Shown: piece after piece, positions 3,346 through 12,824 of the stretch
Position numbering within the stretch: position 1 is the first letter of the stretch
Layout of the letters: each line of letters begins with the position of its first letter
Assembly: GCA_038243585.1 (NCBI GenBank)
Contig: JBBSQY010000029.1
Location: forward strand, 1-42,058
Length of the DNA stretch: 42,058 nt
DNA from: Candidatus Sumerlaeales bacterium
GTDB taxonomy: Bacteria; Sumerlaeota; Sumerlaeia; Sumerlaeales; Sumerlaeaceae
Direction of reading: 5' to 3'
Made by a program: the position numbers and the translations under genes
Notes under the pieces: model-generated
Seen by the model: the letters and a program-made list of their open reading frames with translations, nothing else
The model's database searches: none
Told to the model about the DNA's origin: nothing

Positions 3346-3570
3346 TCACCGGTGCTCACTTCGTCGTCTTTCCATGGCCATTTTTTTAAAGATTGGTTGC
3401 ATCATTTCCAGTTCTGTATAATACATGGCGCTGGGGTCTATTTTTTCTTTTTCGAGCCAGTCGAGGTGAGCTGCCATTCGGGGGCGATTCGCAGCCCATG
3501 GCAGGGCTACCAGCCATATGAGGGTTAGCAGGGCCAGCGCTGCTGTCAGCTTTAGCAGTCGGGCCGCCAT
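3346..3570 (-). CDS. Small membrane-anchored hypothetical protein, translationally coupled to the transporter
   Basis: TAATG stop/start overlap at 3570; N-terminal hydrophobic helix; IDPSAMYYTELE segment. Confidence 0.65.
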   Translation of the reverse strand: MAARLLKLTAALALLTLIWLVALPWAANRPRMAAHLDWLEKEKIDPSAMYYTELEMMQPIFKKMAMERRRSEHR

Positions 3571-5030
3571 TAATAGACCAGGTCTTTAAAGATAACTCCG
3601 AACATGAGCCATGCCATTAAAAGGGTGAGAACGAGGTTTAGGGATTGTCCGCAGATGTAAAGCACCAACGGGCGACCGCCGCGAAAGTAGGGCTGAAGTT
3701 CGCGGAAGTTAGTCTCCAAGCCAATACTGACGAAGGCCAGGCAGAACAGCCATTCGCGGATTATCTTGGATGAGTCGCCTATCATGGCGTCGATGATTTC
3801 CGGTCCGCCGGCGAGGGTCTCGTATAGCACGGAAAACAGGATGGAAACCAGTATGAAACCGAGTACGAACTTGGGAAAACGGGTCCAGATTTCTGTGAGG
3901 CGGGGACGTGGGGCATTGGGTTCGCGCTCGACTTTTGTGACCCAGTAGAGGGCTACGAAAAACGCGACGACGCCGATGAGGATGTTCTGGATCATCTTTA
4001 CAGTGGCGGCGGTTTCTAGAGCGCGCTCACCCAGGACAGCGCCCGCGGCGGCGACCGCTCCGGTGGAATCGATTGTTCCGCCGAGCCAGGCGCCGGCGAT
4101 GATCGGATCCATGTCGACAGCCTTGATAACCATGGGCATCAGAACCATCATAAGCACCGTGAATGACAGGGACATTCCGATGGCCAGGGTCAGCTCTTCT
4201 TTTTTCGCTTTGCAGGCGGCGCCCGTTGCGATGGCAGCGGATACGCCGCACACAGACATGTCTGCACAGATGACCATGTTGAGAGATCGGGACGGAATCT
4301 TTAGAATCTTTTGTCCGAAAATGTAAGTGGAGACAAGGACAACCGGGGTGACGACCCAAGCAACAAATATCCCGGGTATGCTGAGGGCAAGGAGGCGCGA
4401 CATTAATACTTCTGCTCCGAGGAGGACCAGGCCGGTCTTTATGTAGAACTCCGTCTGGATAGCGGGGCGCATCCAGTTGGGCGTGCGGATCGTATTACTG
4501 ATGATCAGCCCGACGAGCAGCGCCCAGAGGGCATACTCCAGGTTATAGGCTTTTATGACACTTTGCCCTGAGAGTACATACGCGAACAGCGCCAGCAGAA
4601 ATACGGCCGGAAAGGCTTTTAAAAAGGCGAGTCCGCTCTTCCCGCGCATCACCATGGCGAGGCTGCAGACAAGGGCGATCAAAGCGAAAATGCCAAGGAG
4701 TCCGGGGATGACGCTGACCGACGATGTCTTATCCGACGCCGGCTTTTGAAAAGCATGAACAGGGTTACTGGTCCATTTTGCGGGCTTGGCGAGGTATCCT
4801 TTTAGTGGGCTGTGGATCGAAATTTCTTCGTCGCTTGCCAGTTGAGCCTGAAAATCCGCAGGTCGGGCGAACCAGACAAGAGCGAACAAAACCAGTAATA
4901 AGAAACCACCGCACCATACGGCCCACCAGTCTTCGGATGTGCGCATTTCGGTCCAGGTTGACATTTTCGGCGGTAGTATAGCTTCCGAGGAGGGTACCTC
5001 TTCCGAGGATCGTGGGGAGTTGCTGCTCAT
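3570..5030 (-). CDS. Putative sulfate exporter (YeiH/PSE) family transporter
   Basis: Multi-TM; EFYIKTGLVLLG, SVCGVSAAIA, GAWLGGTIDSTGAVAAAG, RFPKFVLGF, AFVSIGLETNF motifs. Confidence 0.9.
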   Translation of the reverse strand: MSSNSPRSSEEVPSSEAILPPKMSTWTEMRTSEDWWAVWCGGFLLLVLFALVWFARPADFQAQLASDEEISIHSPLKGYLAKPAKWTSNPVHAFQKPASDKTSSVSVIPGLLGIFALIALVCSLAMVMRGKSGLAFLKAFPAVFLLALFAYVLSGQSVIKAYNLEYALWALLVGLIISNTIRTPNWMRPAIQTEFYIKTGLVLLGAEVLMSRLLALSIPGIFVAWVVTPVVLVSTYIFGQKILKIPSRSLNMVICADMSVCGVSAAIATGAACKAKKEELTLAIGMSLSFTVLMMVLMPMVIKAVDMDPIIAGAWLGGTIDSTGAVAAAGAVLGERALETAATVKMIQNILIGVVAFFVALYWVTKVEREPNAPRPRLTEIWTRFPKFVLGFILVSILFSVLYETLAGGPEIIDAMIGDSSKIIREWLFCLAFVSIGLETNFRELQPYFRGGRPLVLYICGQSLNLVLTLLMAWLMFGVIFKDLVY

Positions 5031-8200: not shown

Positions 8201-10375
8201 CTATTTTTCTGCGGTCGCTGCATCCACGACACAACGAAAGCCAAGGCTGGCTGACCTATCCAGGCTGGGCGCCATAAGCAGGTATTTCCCGTGGGTGTTT
8301 AGTTCATGGGCCTGGGGGAAGTACCAGTTTGACCCCGATGGCCGGTAAGAGCTGCCTCCCCGCAACACTGCCGCGCGGGTGTGTACATCCTTGTACTCGT
8401 CTGTCCACTGCCAAACATTACCCACCATGTCCATCACACCGAATGGGCTGCCCCCCTGCGGGTGAGCATCGACGTCGGCCCGCAGTGGCTGAACGCGACC
8501 ATTGGCGAATGGTGGCATAGCCTTGGCCTTTTTGTCGTCGCCCCAGGGATATTTTCGGTGGTCTGTGCCTTGGGCTGCGTATTGCCATTCCCATTCATGG
8601 GGGAGGCGTTTGCCTGCCCACGCAGCATAAGCGCGCGCATCTTCCAGGGCCACCCACGTCACCGGCTTTTTATCCCACCCAGCGGGGTGTTTACGGCTAT
8701 TCCAATCCCGCAAAAAGTTGTGATCATCTGCGGGCCGATAATTTGCCGCCTCCAGAAACTGCTGAAATTGTGCACATGAGACGGGATATTTATCAATATA
8801 GAAGGCGTCCACATCCATCTCATGCCGATGCTTTAGCTCAGGCCTGTCTTCCCATGGGTATTGGAAATCATTCCCTTCATTTTTTTCCACCATCACCCCT
8901 TTAACTTCGAACAGGTAGCGGCCTGCAGGTATGGCAATCATTCCTTCTGGTGCCTGACCCTGGGGAACTGGTTTTGTTTTCTCGATCGGTACTATCTGCT
9001 GCTTCATGATCTGCCACTCGGAAGAGAGTGCTGACGGTGGAACATTGCTTCGTTTTCTCATATCTGCCAGCAATTGCGTTACGGTGGTTGAAGTGTCTGC
9101 CATTGCCAGCACTGCCGCAAATCCTTCTGCCTCTATTTTAAAACTGACTGTAGCAGACGTGCCAATAATATCAGGATGAAGTTCTTTCCCGGTCCATAGA
9201 TTAAAATACCTAGTACTGTCCCCGGCCGGCAGCGTCAGTTGTTTCCCGCTTACAGTGCTCGTAGTCTGATTTATCATAGTCGTTAACGAGCCGTCACCTA
9301 GTGGGAACCGAGTAGCAAAAACTCCCGTCTGCAAGGTCGGGTAATGGGGGATGTAATCCGGGCTCGACAGGAATTCCGGGACTGCTTTATAGATCATCCG
9401 GATGCGACGGATCGTTTCCCCATCCTTCGGGGTCACGCCATTCCAGATCCCCCACACGTTCTCCCAGCTCTGATGCCCGGCCCCATTAAAAAAGGCCAGT
9501 TGCAGCAAATCGTTGCGGTTGTGAGACCAGCGGTCGCACACATGAGTCATGTGGCGCGATTCCAGCCAACGAAACTTATTAATGGGAGGAATCTGCTGAT
9601 AAGGCCACCAGTATCCCCACGACATGGTGTTCCAAACCAGGCCTGTTGGGTCGGCAATTCCATTTTCTGGCTCCATTACCAATGGGTGACCGATGGCCAC
9701 GGACGCATCATAAAAATCTCGCGAGACGCCCGACATGGTATCGCCATTGAGCCCGTCGGCATTAATTTCTTTCGCCAACTGAGCAAGTGCCTCTGGCATG
9801 GATGCGCCCTCGTCGCGAGTGCCATGATCCCAATACATTATCGGGATAAATACTCGCACATGCCTCCGATGAAAATCCTCTACCATCTGACGTACGCCAG
9901 CAAGTCCTCCGGGCATGTCCCGCCACAAATCATACTGATTCCGGTCATCGATTCCCATGTTCGGATAGGTCGGCCATACCAATACGCTGTCGATGCCGCC
10001 GTATCGGGCTTCGAGGTCGCCGAGGTATCGATCAACCGTATAGCGCTGCTGCTGCGGATCAAAAAAGAAGCGATCGTGGGCCATCATCTGTGGCTGCACA
10101 AAATCGGTACGCGTCCACTCAAATTGTGGCAGCGAGTAAGGATCGCCTAGCTCTGCGATGACCGGACCCAGCAGCTTTCGCTGTTCCACGCGCCATGTCT
10201 TCATCCCTCGCAGCCACGCCTCATGCTCCGCGGGTGCCGCAGGTCCTTCAAGCAGTTCAGAAACGTGATTGCCCTCTAAAAGCCTTGCCGGTTTTTCCGG
10301 TGGTGCGGCGTCGCAGTGAAAAGTAAACAGGGCCAGCCAGGTGACGGCGAGAAGACTGCGGGGAAATATAGACAT
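8201..10375 (-). CDS. Secreted protein: N-terminal glycoside-hydrolase-like barrel plus C-terminal FGE-sulfatase (SUMF1) domain
   Basis: Signal peptide; C-terminal FYIDKYPVS, PVTWV, RLPHEWEWQYAA, YPWG, DMVGNVWQW, RGGS, GFRCV; N-terminal part has NGDT/EPE acidic motifs (domain call is inference). Confidence 0.8.
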   Translation of the reverse strand: MSIFPRSLLAVTWLALFTFHCDAAPPEKPARLLEGNHVSELLEGPAAPAEHEAWLRGMKTWRVEQRKLLGPVIAELGDPYSLPQFEWTRTDFVQPQMMAHDRFFFDPQQQRYTVDRYLGDLEARYGGIDSVLVWPTYPNMGIDDRNQYDLWRDMPGGLAGVRQMVEDFHRRHVRVFIPIMYWDHGTRDEGASMPEALAQLAKEINADGLNGDTMSGVSRDFYDASVAIGHPLVMEPENGIADPTGLVWNTMSWGYWWPYQQIPPINKFRWLESRHMTHVCDRWSHNRNDLLQLAFFNGAGHQSWENVWGIWNGVTPKDGETIRRIRMIYKAVPEFLSSPDYIPHYPTLQTGVFATRFPLGDGSLTTMINQTTSTVSGKQLTLPAGDSTRYFNLWTGKELHPDIIGTSATVSFKIEAEGFAAVLAMADTSTTVTQLLADMRKRSNVPPSALSSEWQIMKQQIVPIEKTKPVPQGQAPEGMIAIPAGRYLFEVKGVMVEKNEGNDFQYPWEDRPELKHRHEMDVDAFYIDKYPVSCAQFQQFLEAANYRPADDHNFLRDWNSRKHPAGWDKKPVTWVALEDARAYAAWAGKRLPHEWEWQYAAQGTDHRKYPWGDDKKAKAMPPFANGRVQPLRADVDAHPQGGSPFGVMDMVGNVWQWTDEYKDVHTRAAVLRGGSSYRPSGSNWYFPQAHELNTHGKYLLMAPSLDRSASLGFRCVVDAATAEK

Positions 10376-10523
10376 GGGTGGATGTGCCGATTTAAGGGAC
10401 GAAAAGTAAAGCGTTTTCAAACGTGTGGCAAACTAACTTGTTCGAGTCTGCGGACAGTCGTTATTCGAGAAATTACAGAGAGCCTGACATGGACGCGATG
10501 AGGGGTGTAAATAAACAGCCTAG

Positions 10524-10569: not shown

Positions 10570-12711
10570 TTAAAACGTTACGTTGGTGAACGGGCTGGTT
10601 GCGGTTGATGCCGGGCTTGACGGCGCCAGGTCGCTGTCAGCTGGGGCGCTGATTGGCGAGGGACAATCAGAGCTGGTGTTGTTACTAATGGAATTACCGG
10701 TGGCCGCGACTAAGATCCCGGTGCGGTTTGATATGGTCACGTTATTGCATATCTCACCGTGAGTCCCGCTGACCAGGCTAATGCCACTCAGGGTATTTTT
10801 GCACGCCCGATTTTCTGACACGCACATACCGGAGCCACTCAGCACCATGCCAGAGCTCGTATTTTTGTCTGCCTGGCAGCTGGTGATTGTGGCGCCGCTC
10901 AGGCACGCGAGATCGAGGCCTGTTTGGTTACTGTTGAAACAGGATTTAACAATTGTAACAGTTCCACGCGCCTGGCTGTTGGGGGATTTGCCAACCGACA
11001 TTCCGCTGCCGCCATTGTTGCTGCAGACAATTCCATCACAGTCCTGATCCACTCCCCCGCCTTCGATCAAAGCACCGGAGGCCGCGTTAAAGCTGAAATC
11101 GCAATCAACAAATTTCGATCCGCCTTTAACAGTTCCATCCCATCCTTTGCGGAAGAATCCGGAACCTGAGTTGTTGGTGCAACGGACGGATGAACACACA
11201 ACACTGGAATTACAGGCATCAACTTGAATCCCGTTTTCGCCGTTGTCTGAGAAGTCGCAATCGTTGTCTATCCCGATGCTTCCTTTGGTGGTGCTGTCCC
11301 ATCCGCGGACACGCACGCCGCACGCGCCATTTCCGCCTGCAGACGTGCTGGAGCATGTCAGGTGAAACGGGACTCCATTCAGATCAATACCATCAAGAGC
11401 GTTGGACGAACAGGTGGAGTCGCTTAGTGATCCTCTTGCCTTTAAAACTGTTACGTGGCCGTCAAACCTGATCCCTGAGCCGCCGTTGTCGATACAGGCA
11501 AGTTCTTTGCAGCGGGCACTTTTGCTGGAAATCTGGGCGCCGTGTCCGCCGTTTCGGCTAAAGTCACAATCGTTACAATCAACCTGGCCCGATTTTACAA
11601 AACACCCAACGGTACTGTTGTCACTACAGCGGCCTTTGTCCTTGTCAAAACTAGCTTTGATCCAGTTATCTACATGATTTATTCCGCCACCTTTATTGAA
11701 ACAGAACGCAGAATCCGCTATGGAAACGCTGGAGGATCCGGCGGATCCCGGAGCTGTGAGGAACCTGAAGCCATCGCCGCCATTTGATGAGCATGTCATT
11801 TTACTGACAGATATATCGAGCGGCCCATTGATGCTGCCACCACCCTGACCTCCACCGCCGGCCGTTACGGAAAAACCGTTGCCACCATTAGAGCTGTTCA
11901 CGCAGTTTTTAAGGTCGTAGCAAACAGAGCCGATAGATGGCAACTGCAGGCTCGTTCCATGAGTGCTATTGCTGGAACAAACAACTTGGCTGCTGCTCCA
12001 GGTCACAACGGAAGTCACCTCAGATACGATTGCCTTAATACCGGAACCCGAGCCGGTGGTCCCATTGCCGGTAAATTTACAGGATTCGATATCCACGGGG
12101 CATGTTCCGGAAGGCGAGAAAGTCAGACTGAGTCCATCCGACCCATTGTCTCGGCATACGCTGCTTATACAGCGAAACGGCGATGCGCTACTGGAAGAGG
12201 CCACGATGCCGGTTCCGCTACTGCCGGAGACTATGCAGCGGGAGAGTGTGCCGCCCAGCATATCGATGCCGGATTCGCCGCACTTTGATATAAGCAAGTT
12301 TTCCAGCTGCAGGTTGGACGGGCAGCGGCTGCGTATGCCGGCCTGATTGAAGCCGGTGCACGAACCATTTTTTATTGTTACGTTTTTACTGGTCGCTGCA
12401 ACCACGATGCCCGCGACCGCGCCACCTGCGATTCCGGAGATTGAGGACCCATTCAAGTCCAAGGTCACATCGCTGGCTTCTATGGTGATACCGGAGGTTG
12501 TGGTGCTAAGATTGCCGACCACCTTATAAGTGCCGGGAGCGGATATGGTGAACGGCAATCGTTTGATGATAATCGCCGTCTCGACCTCGTCAAGGGTCCG
12601 CATGGTGGAGGTGGGCGGACCGACCGGGGGGGTGAGGCTGCCGGCCATAACGGCCGTGCAGCAGGAATAAACTATTGCTGCGATCATGGAGTGAAATCCA
12701 AGTTTATACAC
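10570..12711 (-). CDS. Secreted Cys-rich right-handed parallel beta-helix repeat protein
   Basis: GTG start at 12711 with AGGAGA RBS; signal peptide; AGSLTPPVGPPTSTMRTLDEVE N-terminal motif, PFTISAPGTY, VTLDLNG, many xxNxxxG beta-helix coils; ends SPFTNVTF. Confidence 0.85.
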   Translation of the reverse strand: MYKLGFHSMIAAIVYSCCTAVMAGSLTPPVGPPTSTMRTLDEVETAIIIKRLPFTISAPGTYKVVGNLSTTTSGITIEASDVTLDLNGSSISGIAGGAVAGIVVAATSKNVTIKNGSCTGFNQAGIRSRCPSNLQLENLLISKCGESGIDMLGGTLSRCIVSGSSGTGIVASSSSASPFRCISSVCRDNGSDGLSLTFSPSGTCPVDIESCKFTGNGTTGSGSGIKAIVSEVTSVVTWSSSQVVCSSNSTHGTSLQLPSIGSVCYDLKNCVNSSNGGNGFSVTAGGGGQGGGSINGPLDISVSKMTCSSNGGDGFRFLTAPGSAGSSSVSIADSAFCFNKGGGINHVDNWIKASFDKDKGRCSDNSTVGCFVKSGQVDCNDCDFSRNGGHGAQISSKSARCKELACIDNGGSGIRFDGHVTVLKARGSLSDSTCSSNALDGIDLNGVPFHLTCSSTSAGGNGACGVRVRGWDSTTKGSIGIDNDCDFSDNGENGIQVDACNSSVVCSSVRCTNNSGSGFFRKGWDGTVKGGSKFVDCDFSFNAASGALIEGGGVDQDCDGIVCSNNGGSGMSVGKSPNSQARGTVTIVKSCFNSNQTGLDLACLSGATITSCQADKNTSSGMVLSGSGMCVSENRACKNTLSGISLVSGTHGEICNNVTISNRTGILVAATGNSISNNTSSDCPSPISAPADSDLAPSSPASTATSPFTNVTF

Positions 12712-12824
12712 GATCAGGTTTCTCCTGAGAAATGAAGTCGTACAACCGTACTTCTGCAACGGGACAACATCCATCCTGGACTAGAATGGGATACTAACTT
12801 GTGATCATGGAAATGTGAGTGAGC

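Follow-up and report, generated by a model that had tools for sequence, protein, structure and literature searches.

Short peptides on a secreted-type beta-helix protein of Candidatus Sumerlaeales point to a vocabulary shared with unrelated Bacteroidota proteins

Short-linear-motif mimicry, integrated decoys and bait regions all place short copies of conserved peptides on an unrelated carrier. Those cases belong to host-pathogen or immune-receptor systems with known targets, whereas the proteins considered here are of secreted type, come from environmental bacteria and carry peptides that recall many source families. They centre on one gene of a Candidatus Sumerlaeales bacterium (GCA_038243585.1, contig JBBSQY010000029.1), located in the 42,058-nt stretch analysed here (positions 1-42,058 of the forward strand; hereafter the window) and encoding a beta-helix protein, P0001, whose coils carry odd short peptides that we call words (Table 1). 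P0001 resembles the PbH1 proteins AlgE4 (2pyg), PL6 (7o7t), tailspikes and pertactin (1dab) in its profile, its xxNxxxG coils, its predicted solenoid and its predicted secretion. However, its coils often span 27-35 residues, the enlargements carry peptides that are also found in non-helix proteins, the cap and tail are its own, and no catalytic family model matches it.

Three further groups of proteins invite comparison. For type-B sorting domains of type IX secretion systems (T9SS), five conserved motifs, A to E, are reported in PMC12618676 as required for secretion. Such domains (CHU_C, PF13585; TIGR04131) end SprB-like adhesins, and P0001 holds two of their stretches, FRKGWDGTVKGGSK (14 of 14 residues) and GHVTVLK (7 of 7), while a third, IYDRWGE, occurs in the family member P0019; in P0001, however, they lie inside the protein in a different order, with PbH1 coils between them, and the domain profile is unmatched. 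From Hcp/TssD (PF05638, TIGR03344), the relatives P0078 and P0014 and a homologue in genome G004 hold the Gly-rich-loop-plus-strand word of Hcp1, but as a single coil rather than a domain, and P0001 itself has no significant similarity to Hcp. Finally, a set of Bacteroidota word proteins has a vocabulary in common with P0001, but on a scaffold that is not a beta-helix, with the words in tandem or between prealbumin-like domains, and in another phylum.

We consider, with a probability of about 0.55, that P0001 is best explained as a secreted beta-helix bearing inherited, in-register peptides that partly belong to a cross-scaffold vocabulary, are kept by selection and are displayed outside the cell. 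The enlarged coils carry the words as their third strand and preceding turn; most words were inherited, and an old duplication of two coils multiplied them. A vocabulary of 7-15-residue peptides that spans phyla includes four or five of these words (FRKGWDGTVKGGSKF, GHVTVLK, GTVTIVK, GVDxDCDG and VRGWDS), and its other carriers are T9SS type-B sorting domains, word proteins with CarboxypepD_reg annotation and an immunoglobulin-like (Ig-like) repeat protein. Selection acts on the peptide. A rigid extracellular scaffold would present the words to partners as recognition or mimic epitopes. We infer that these short motifs have a function and that the helix displays them. What the shared peptides point to is an undescribed code, and not segments newly captured from other genes, which an initial annotation of this DNA had proposed when it described the protein as a mosaic of motifs borrowed from unrelated families; the mosaic holds in part, as a family-wide peptide vocabulary and as fragments in relatives, whereas ongoing capture is not supported.

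One likeness is to the T9SS sorting domains. When the conserved peptide of the clade was scanned against genomes, one for each species (confirmed match: query residues 515-557), it yielded a series of Bacteroidota loci, among which L016, L019, L023, L025 and L027 are C-terminal ends of proteins. The four full-length loci have open frames of 1407 aa, and L025 is a 65-aa C-terminal piece only. In L016, the only locus scanned with profiles, SprB repeats and PKD domains accompany a CHU_C domain (1.9e-16; TIGR04131, 4e-12), and the 14 residues inside this domain are identical to P0001 residues 541-554. The initial annotation had likened the GWDGTxKG peptide to T9SS type-B domains, and the likeness proved stronger than it had claimed. 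The same 14-residue word is identical in L015, L016, L019, L023 and L027, yet only 5-10 of the 14 codons are the same; identical residues written in different codons indicate selection on the peptide, not recent transfer of DNA. Moreover, the exact 15-mer FRKGWDGTVKGGSKF is present in P0254, and the sorting domains end with GHVTVLK (L016) or GHVTL(L/I)K (other loci), a word that lies outside the seed of the search.

The words also occur on other scaffolds. At other Bacteroidota loci, the same 14-residue word forms tandem arrays inside unrelated proteins. P0190 (E 3.1e-05 in the library-wide search) has prealbumin-like domains, three ARKGWDGTVKGGSK words and VIVRGWDSQKKASI, and holds VRGWDS; P0191 (E 8e-03) is an Ig-like repeat protein with RKGWDGTVKGGSK, VTVRGWDPVKKEAI and GTVTIVKRG, in which GTVTIVK and GHVTVLK each occur twice exactly. 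When P0001 was compared with these two proteins by BLASTP, the words alone aligned, so that the same motif set does sit on other scaffolds, a point that the initial annotation had proposed to check. At E ≤ 1e-5 the P0190 family counts 119 proteins from Lutibacter, Chitinophagaceae, Pedobacter and Paraflavitalea, annotated as hypothetical or as carboxypeptidase regulatory-like domain-containing (CarboxypepD_reg). KGWDGTVKG is exact in 78 of the 119, which also hold GVDDDCDG, HNSSRSNK, GVGIVVK, HRD(I/L)AARN, Hcp-loop words and NPLY..NPLF.

The extent of this sharing was measured with exact 8-mers between 188 beta-helix proteins and the 119 word-family proteins, leaving out the self copy P0002, the near-duplicate P0192 and P0191, as well as k-mers with fewer than five distinct residues. 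The two sets had 70 8-mers in common, compared with 0-5 in 20 shuffles, and unseeded shared words included KAQDHNSSRSNK, KPISGVGIVVK, IHRDIAARNI, GDPIPGLDV and KGYDYY. Exact 13-15-mers are likewise shared across the phyla, with divergent codons. A second test counted each peptide of P0001 in 187 family and 120 other-scaffold proteins (307 in all) against shuffled-motif controls. KGWDGTVKG, which is the search seed, was found with at most two mismatches in 4 of 187 and 91 of 120 (controls 0), GVDQDCDG in 4 and 18, as GVD(D/E)DCDG (controls 0), and GHVTVLK in 4, as GHVT(L/I)LK, and 1 (control means 0.0 and 0.1). GTVTIVK occurred in none of the family and in 1 of the 120, and WIKASFDK in 1 of the 187; WIKDSFDK is present in P0004, at a different coil. 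GIDNDCD recurred only weakly, in 2 of the 187 and 3 of the 120, where its controls reached up to 7 and 2. Overall, 5 of the peptides of P0001 exceeded their controls and 6 did not.

Several observations concern the Bacteroidota proteins themselves. L006, L007, L008, L011, L013, L014, L015, L017 and L018, together with P0190 and P0193-P0310, consist largely of short conserved words: arrays of RKGWDGTVKGG, Hcp-loop words, NPLY..NPLF, ..RSN.. words and a C-terminal ..KDTLKT.V. One of their words, HE..H..QQ, matches eCIS_core at 0.0029. In P0308 (554 aa), three KGWDG words and an exact word of the Tyr-kinase catalytic loop stand alongside Hcp-loop words, of which there are six or seven, and its precomputed Pfam entries are T6SS_HCP and PK_Tyr_Ser-Thr only. 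The neighbours of seven word-protein genes have no common theme and are unrelated housekeeping genes; recX follows the word-protein gene in two Chitinophagales genomes, and some carriers are cultured Pedobacter and Paraflavitalea. In the searchable literature, subscription journals not being covered, we found no description of these words or of the family cap, nor any paper that links beta-helix proteins with Hcp mimicry or decoys.

We then consider where the peptides sit on the helix. Pfam Beta_helix (PF13229) matches four stretches of P0001 (E 1.8e-18; 67.1 bits against a curated cut-off of 25.9) and NosD (PF05048) matches at 8.2e-06; the only further Pfam row at E ≤ 1 is a chance match (0.089), and an NCBIfam scan gave nothing above cut-off and no foreign family at E ≤ 1. 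All 11 peptides that the initial annotation had named lie where it placed them in the frame 10570-12774 (-), but they are not out of register as it had described them: with the xxNxxxG Asn as the point of register for stacking the coils, all fall in the same coil segment, past the strand that follows NxxxG, and the coils that bear them are enlarged. An AlphaFold2 model built with a 140-row alignment forms one continuous three-strand solenoid (mean predicted local distance difference test, pLDDT, 83.9; predicted template modelling score, pTM, 0.70); a single-sequence model (pLDDT 39.7) was discarded. In the retained model CYDLK, DISVSK, WIKASF, VDCNDCD, VRVR, IDNDCD and VDQDCD are beta-strands, and GGGGQGGG, GWDSTT, KGWDGTVKGG, KSPNSQAR and GHVTVLK are loops of 6-13 residues, each joining the second and third strand of its own coil at the same turn in successive coils. 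Because of this strand order, the five long loops (residues 306-318, 439-445, 491-496, 543-552 and 595-605) should line up along one edge of the helix. As modelled, the odd peptides do not interrupt the helix as foreign insertions would; they form the third strand, and the turn before it, in coils that have become larger.

The homologues indicate that most of this arrangement is old. The library-wide search returned 5103 representatives at E ≤ 1e-3, most of which match only the N-terminal 150-200 residues; the family is very large and unnamed, and it has a GSLTPPGxPxPTM(K/R)TLD cap and a C-terminal tail that is conserved and aromatic. The closest among the matches listed are P0050 (2.2e-93), P0051 (1.4e-91) and P0052 (5.9e-41), to which P0189 was added by a region search, and all four align with P0001 at 34-38% identity. 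K543-G551 and G491-G498 are invariant in these four proteins, GWD.T.KG being kept at each of its two sites. Neither the GVD.DCDG strands nor the Gly-rich loop (compared in P0050, P0051 and P0189) changes position, GKSPNSQARGTVTIVK of P0001 aligns with AKKEFKGHVTLLK of the homologues, and GTVTIVK aligns with KGHVTL(L/M)K of P0050 and P0051. A two-coil duplication is also seen in P0050, P0051 and P0052, and P0189 has about five GWD coils. In P0001 the duplicated copies, VRVRGWDSTTKG...IDNDCDF and FFRKGWDGTVKG...VDCDF, give a self-alignment score (residues 479-531 against 532-583) of 71, compared with 28 ± 5 for shuffles, and 0 of 500 shuffles reached it. VRVRGWDSTTKG and KGWDGTVKG are therefore one motif, although they had been assigned to separate VgrG and T9SS donors. 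Most of the odd peptides are apparently inherited, being conserved in the nearest homologues and multiplied by the old two-coil duplication. The differences between homologues are insertions and deletions of coils. The motifs mostly keep their place from homologue to homologue; one orthologous coil reads differently in each protein: GGGINHVDNWIKASFDK in P0001, GGGKVSIKDFTICK in P0050, GGGKVTFNQFSV in P0051 and ARIVHRDLACRNVLVS in P0189, the last matching a Tyr-kinase profile at 2.1e-04.

Within the order, the gene is patchy, with a homologue in 1 of 12 other genomes (G004) and none at E ≤ 1e-10 in either congener; the two congeners are too divergent for a comparison of DNA synteny. Although the G004 homologue carries an Hcp-like word as well as an exact GHVTVLK, a search of G004 (94% complete) for Hcp gave nothing at E ≤ 10. 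This speaks against a resident Hcp as either the source of the word or its partner. A second family member in the genome of P0001 itself (contig C71, 8882-10000 (-); about 360 aa) is a plain, word-free form with regular coils of 22-23 aa, a GSLTPPGAPGPTMRTLDEVE cap and a ...DAWANFAN end. A query with P0014 found no relative among the genome contigs.

Foreign similarity was found in the relatives of P0001. Pfam was scanned with 94 family members (P0001, 30 and 17 from the first search, P0189, and 45 of 139 listed representatives, chiefly of at least 590 aa), and 7 of the 94 had a non-beta-helix match at E ≤ 1e-3, compared with about 0.09 expected. An HU arm is matched in P0005, P0008 and P0085 (8.4e-05, 8.1e-07 and 1e-03), two of these above the curated cut-off, and NCBIfam HU-alpha matches among these carriers at 3.8e-06. 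The Tyr-kinase catalytic loop is matched in P0026 and P0189 (2-3e-04), FG-GAP in P0021, and Hcp (5.8e-11) together with FG-GAP (9e-08) in P0078. A word of P0014 is identical at 14 of 16 residues to the Gly-loop and strand of the Hcp encoded in the genome of P0001. The fragments are 12-48 residues long and each lies within one or two enlarged coils. For annotation, single-coil Pfam matches to HU, Hcp and kinases in such proteins are grafted peptides, not domains. A PADLOC scan returned nothing, a PHROGs scan only Hcp-like and HU-like fragments again, and a PDB sequence search with P0078 nothing at E ≤ 0.01.

P0001 itself gave no such matches. The Hcp, VgrG, MopE and CHU_C profiles do not match it at E ≤ 1. 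The initial annotation had compared VxVRGWDxxxK with VgrG/gpD-like proteins (PF05954); this was not borne out by profiles, by a phmmer search of PDB with residues 480-507 (0 matches at E ≤ 10) or by a tblastn query of 50,697 phage records with the VRVRGWD stretch, which gave only matches at E ≥ 2, antisense to terminase genes. Its comparison of GGGG..DISxxK and YDLK with Hcp fared no better, since Smith-Waterman alignment of P0001 with the Hcp of its own genome scored 36 against 39 ± 5.5 for shuffles (149 of 200 as high) and a PDB search with residues 284-330 at E ≤ 10 gave one irrelevant match and no Hcp. For GxDNDCD/DQDCDG as a MopE-like repeat (PF11617), P0001 has no match at E ≤ 1, and the relatives P0021 and P0025 match at 0.011 and 0.027, under the cut-off; GVDxDCDG as a mere peptide is, however, found again in other proteins. 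By the refuting conditions that the initial annotation had itself set, its Hcp, VgrG and MopE assignments fail for P0001. An origin of GWD..KG in the C-terminus of Hcp was considered and dropped, the motif being absent from the Hcp of this genome.

That Hcp is an orphan Hcp1-family gene at C90:3525-4079 (-), equivalent to L002:1432-1986 (-), with a PF05638 match at 1.6e-21 and an N-terminal signal peptide. A Sec-exported Hcp would be unusual. Its best PDB match is PA0085 (1y12; 1.9e-14), it adjoins a TPR/transglycosylase-like gene, and no VipB or Phage_GPD was detected in the genome.

Donor DNA was sought in the same genome (G000; 3.43 Mb, 89.7% complete). In six-frame searches, CHU_C gave nothing at E ≤ 10, Phage_GPD nothing at E ≤ 1, and Hcp at E ≤ 10 only the C90 gene; a SprA_N profile had no match, but it had none in 14 of 14 control genomes either. 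The words are absent elsewhere in the six-frame translation. With blastn-short, the best match of the gene outside itself scored 36.2 bits, compared with 32.2-38.2 in 20 codon shuffles, and 19 matches reached at least 30 bits, compared with 9-32, so that no donor DNA stood above the controls. A tblastn search found only the C71 paralogue (3.4e-14), all other matches having E ≥ 0.47. Among the 24 larger open reading frames (ORFs) of the window that were scanned, there was no reverse transcriptase (RT), recombinase or injection-system gene, only ordinary chromosomal genes; the RT or recombinase that had been suggested as a companion was thus not seen there. The back-translated word pattern had 0 matches in viral contigs.

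Several points weigh against reading the words as a shared, displayed vocabulary. The search was seeded with the KGWDG word, and likeness to residues 430-610 was the basis for choosing P0190 and P0191, so that only the other words are independent evidence. P0001 lacks any foreign-family match in either Pfam or NCBIfam at E ≤ 1, and GGGGQGGG, DISVSK, CYDLK, GQVDCNDCD, VRVRGWDSTTKG (12-mer) and GKSPNSQARG did not recur at all in the 307 proteins. An ordinary PbH1 coil of P0050 (residues 405-451, ..NTGCGAVIQASSFV..) matches IscU at E 0.006, a sign that PbH1 coils can come to resemble signatures of other families; one coil exists in a kinase-like and an Hcp-like version that can be aligned with each other; and Adeno_E1B_55K (P0057) and DUF4957 (P0058), also at E ≤ 1e-3, were set aside as possibly related to the fold. 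Loop exposure on one edge would follow from strand order, not from coordinates, and loop confidence in the model is modest, with pLDDT below 50 at 441-443 and about 63-70 at 306-318.

A bolder version of the displayed vocabulary is a tentative possibility: the words might form a cross-phylum extracellular mimicry code, in which unrelated secreted scaffolds (the beta-helices, and the word proteins of Bacteroidota) would present exact copies of the best-conserved peptides of Hcp tubes, HU arms, T9SS sorting domains, FG-GAP loops and kinase catalytic loops, so as to dock to, decoy or jam their readers (toxins, proteases, receptors or like-with-like strand pairing) and would be swapped between orthologous coils as targets change.

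The rival that survives best, though we think it unlikely, is that P0001 is an ordinary beta-helix whose peptides are structural turns and strands, their likeness due to chance, beta-hairpin convergence or an old mini-repeat. The lack of a foreign profile match in P0001 would fit, as would the IscU-like coil of P0050 as a case of imitated signatures, the housekeeping neighbours of the Bacteroidota genes and the privacy of 6 of the 11 peptides, half being plain strands. Such a protein would not be expected to have exact 13-15-mers in common with another phylum in divergent codons, to belong to a family with 70 shared 8-mers where shuffles give 0-5, to have relatives with Hcp (5.8e-11) and HU (8.1e-07) fragments within single coils, or to combine two CHU_C motifs that also stand together in true CHU_C domains.

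It is improbable that P0001 acts on polysaccharides as an enzyme (a depolymerase, or an AlgG-, AlgE- or PL6-type lyase or epimerase), with turns that shape a substrate groove and with words that bind glycans or metals and serve as loops in further carbohydrate-facing proteins too. Foldseek did match the model to AlgE4, PL6 lyases, AlgG, Pel9A, tailspikes, phage depolymerases and pertactin, with enzymes of this kind among the best, but with query TM-scores of at most 0.28 and 8-16% identity, which reflects the generic fold only. The NosD and Beta_helix matches, the Asp/Cys-rich DxDCD strands, the FG-GAP-like Ca-type loops in relatives and the sulfatase-maturase-like and BNR genes present in the window agree with an enzyme, whereas the lack of a catalytic family match speaks against one and the HU, Hcp and kinase-loop peptides would be left unexplained. 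Active capture of 7-12-residue segments from other genes by RT, recombinase or templated repair is very improbable: the coil that holds different words in P0001, P0050/P0051 and P0189, the coil-level insertions and deletions and the patchy gene would suit it, but there is no donor DNA above codon shuffles, no other copy of the words or CHU_C domain (E ≤ 10) in the genome, only a regular paralogue by tblastn and no RT or recombinase among the ORFs scanned, and the identical words differ in codons and are older than the split of the nearest homologues (36-38% identity).

As for the gene itself, the mechanical ORF 10570-12774 (-) reaches an upstream ATG at 12774 (734 aa), from which the residues of P0001 are numbered. 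The public gene call P0002 (713 aa) begins at a GTG at 12711 that has an AGGAGA box 9 nt ahead of it, and 10570-12711 was therefore taken as the gene. P0001 contains 16% Ser, 13% Gly and 5.3% Cys and is a Cys-rich right-handed parallel beta-helix protein of predicted Sec-secreted type, encoded by an accessory gene of a soil bacterium. Its hydrophobic N-terminus is a putative Sec signal peptide; typical signal peptides precede the same GSLTPP motif in homologues. In the cap, residues G45, L47, P49, L61 and E65 are almost invariant in the 140-row alignment; in the tail, D715, A717, P718, S727, P728 and N731 are invariant within the clade, and the last residue is aromatic in homologues, whose conserved tail ends in F or Y.

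The gene 113 bp upstream, on the same strand, encodes a 178-aa protein with four W(S/I)E(N/S)xGW(V/L/I) repeats. A gene with the same W(S/I)E(N/S)xGW repeats adjoins the helix homologue of G004 (L028, near 3561-3650), and the repeat is found nowhere else in G000. Downstream, 8201-10420 (-) encodes a protein of secreted type (739 aa) that has an FGE-sulfatase domain (4e-36) at its C-terminus, and this gene is probably not co-transcribed with the helix gene, because a 15-bp hairpin separates the two.

Table 1. Features of the beta-helix gene and its surroundings (window coordinates; residues numbered from the ATG at 12774).
Feature	Position	Strand	Remarks
Beta-helix protein gene	10570..12711	-	713 aa from GTG start
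Putative Sec signal peptide	12643..12711	-	Residues 22-44; ends VMA/G (cleavage between A and G)
N-terminal family cap motif GSLTPPVGPPTSTMRTLDEVE	12580..12642	-	Conserved in 140-row alignment and homologues
Beta-helix coils, about 24, 22-35 aa each	10660..12552	-	Stack on xxNxxxG Asn
Gly-rich loop GGGGQGGGSINGP, then strand LDISVSK	11800..11859	-	Loop 306-318, strand 319-324
WIKASFDK, low-confidence coil	11641..11664	-	pLDDT 50-65
GQVDCNDCD, third Asp/Cys strand	11563..11589	-	Aligns with GVDDDCDG, GLDVDCDG of P0050, P0051
GHVTVLK word	11440..11460	-	Exact in last strand of CHU_C domain of L016, in P0191 and in G004 homologue
Duplicated two-coil units	11026..11340	-	Residues 479-531 and 532-583
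VRVRGWDSTTKG	11281..11316	-	Older copy of GWD..KG word
GIDNDCD, second Asp/Cys strand	11254..11274	-	AlphaFold2 strand
FRKGWDGTVKGGSKF word	11110..11154	-	Residues 541-555; loop between second and third strand
GVDQDCDG, Asp/Cys strand	11032..11055	-	AlphaFold2 beta-strand 577-580
GTVTIVK word	10945..10965	-	Directly after private loop GKSPNSQAR
C-terminal family tail ...DLAPSSPASTATSPFTNVTF	10573..10632	-	Clade conservation
15-bp G+C-rich hairpin just past stop codon	10521..10558	.	Consensus scan only
WSEN-repeat protein gene, 178 aa	12825..13361	-	Lipobox-like LASC; no Pfam family

If the words are functional, bacterial surface and secreted proteins would contain a layer of short linear motifs that has gone unrecognised and that is kept exactly from phylum to phylum, whatever the fold of its carrier. 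Such a layer would offer a handle on thousands of unannotated beta-helix proteins and on a Bacteroidota family that includes proteins of cultured Pedobacter and Paraflavitalea, and would raise the question of what, outside the cell, reads copies of a T9SS sorting motif, an Hcp loop or an HU arm.

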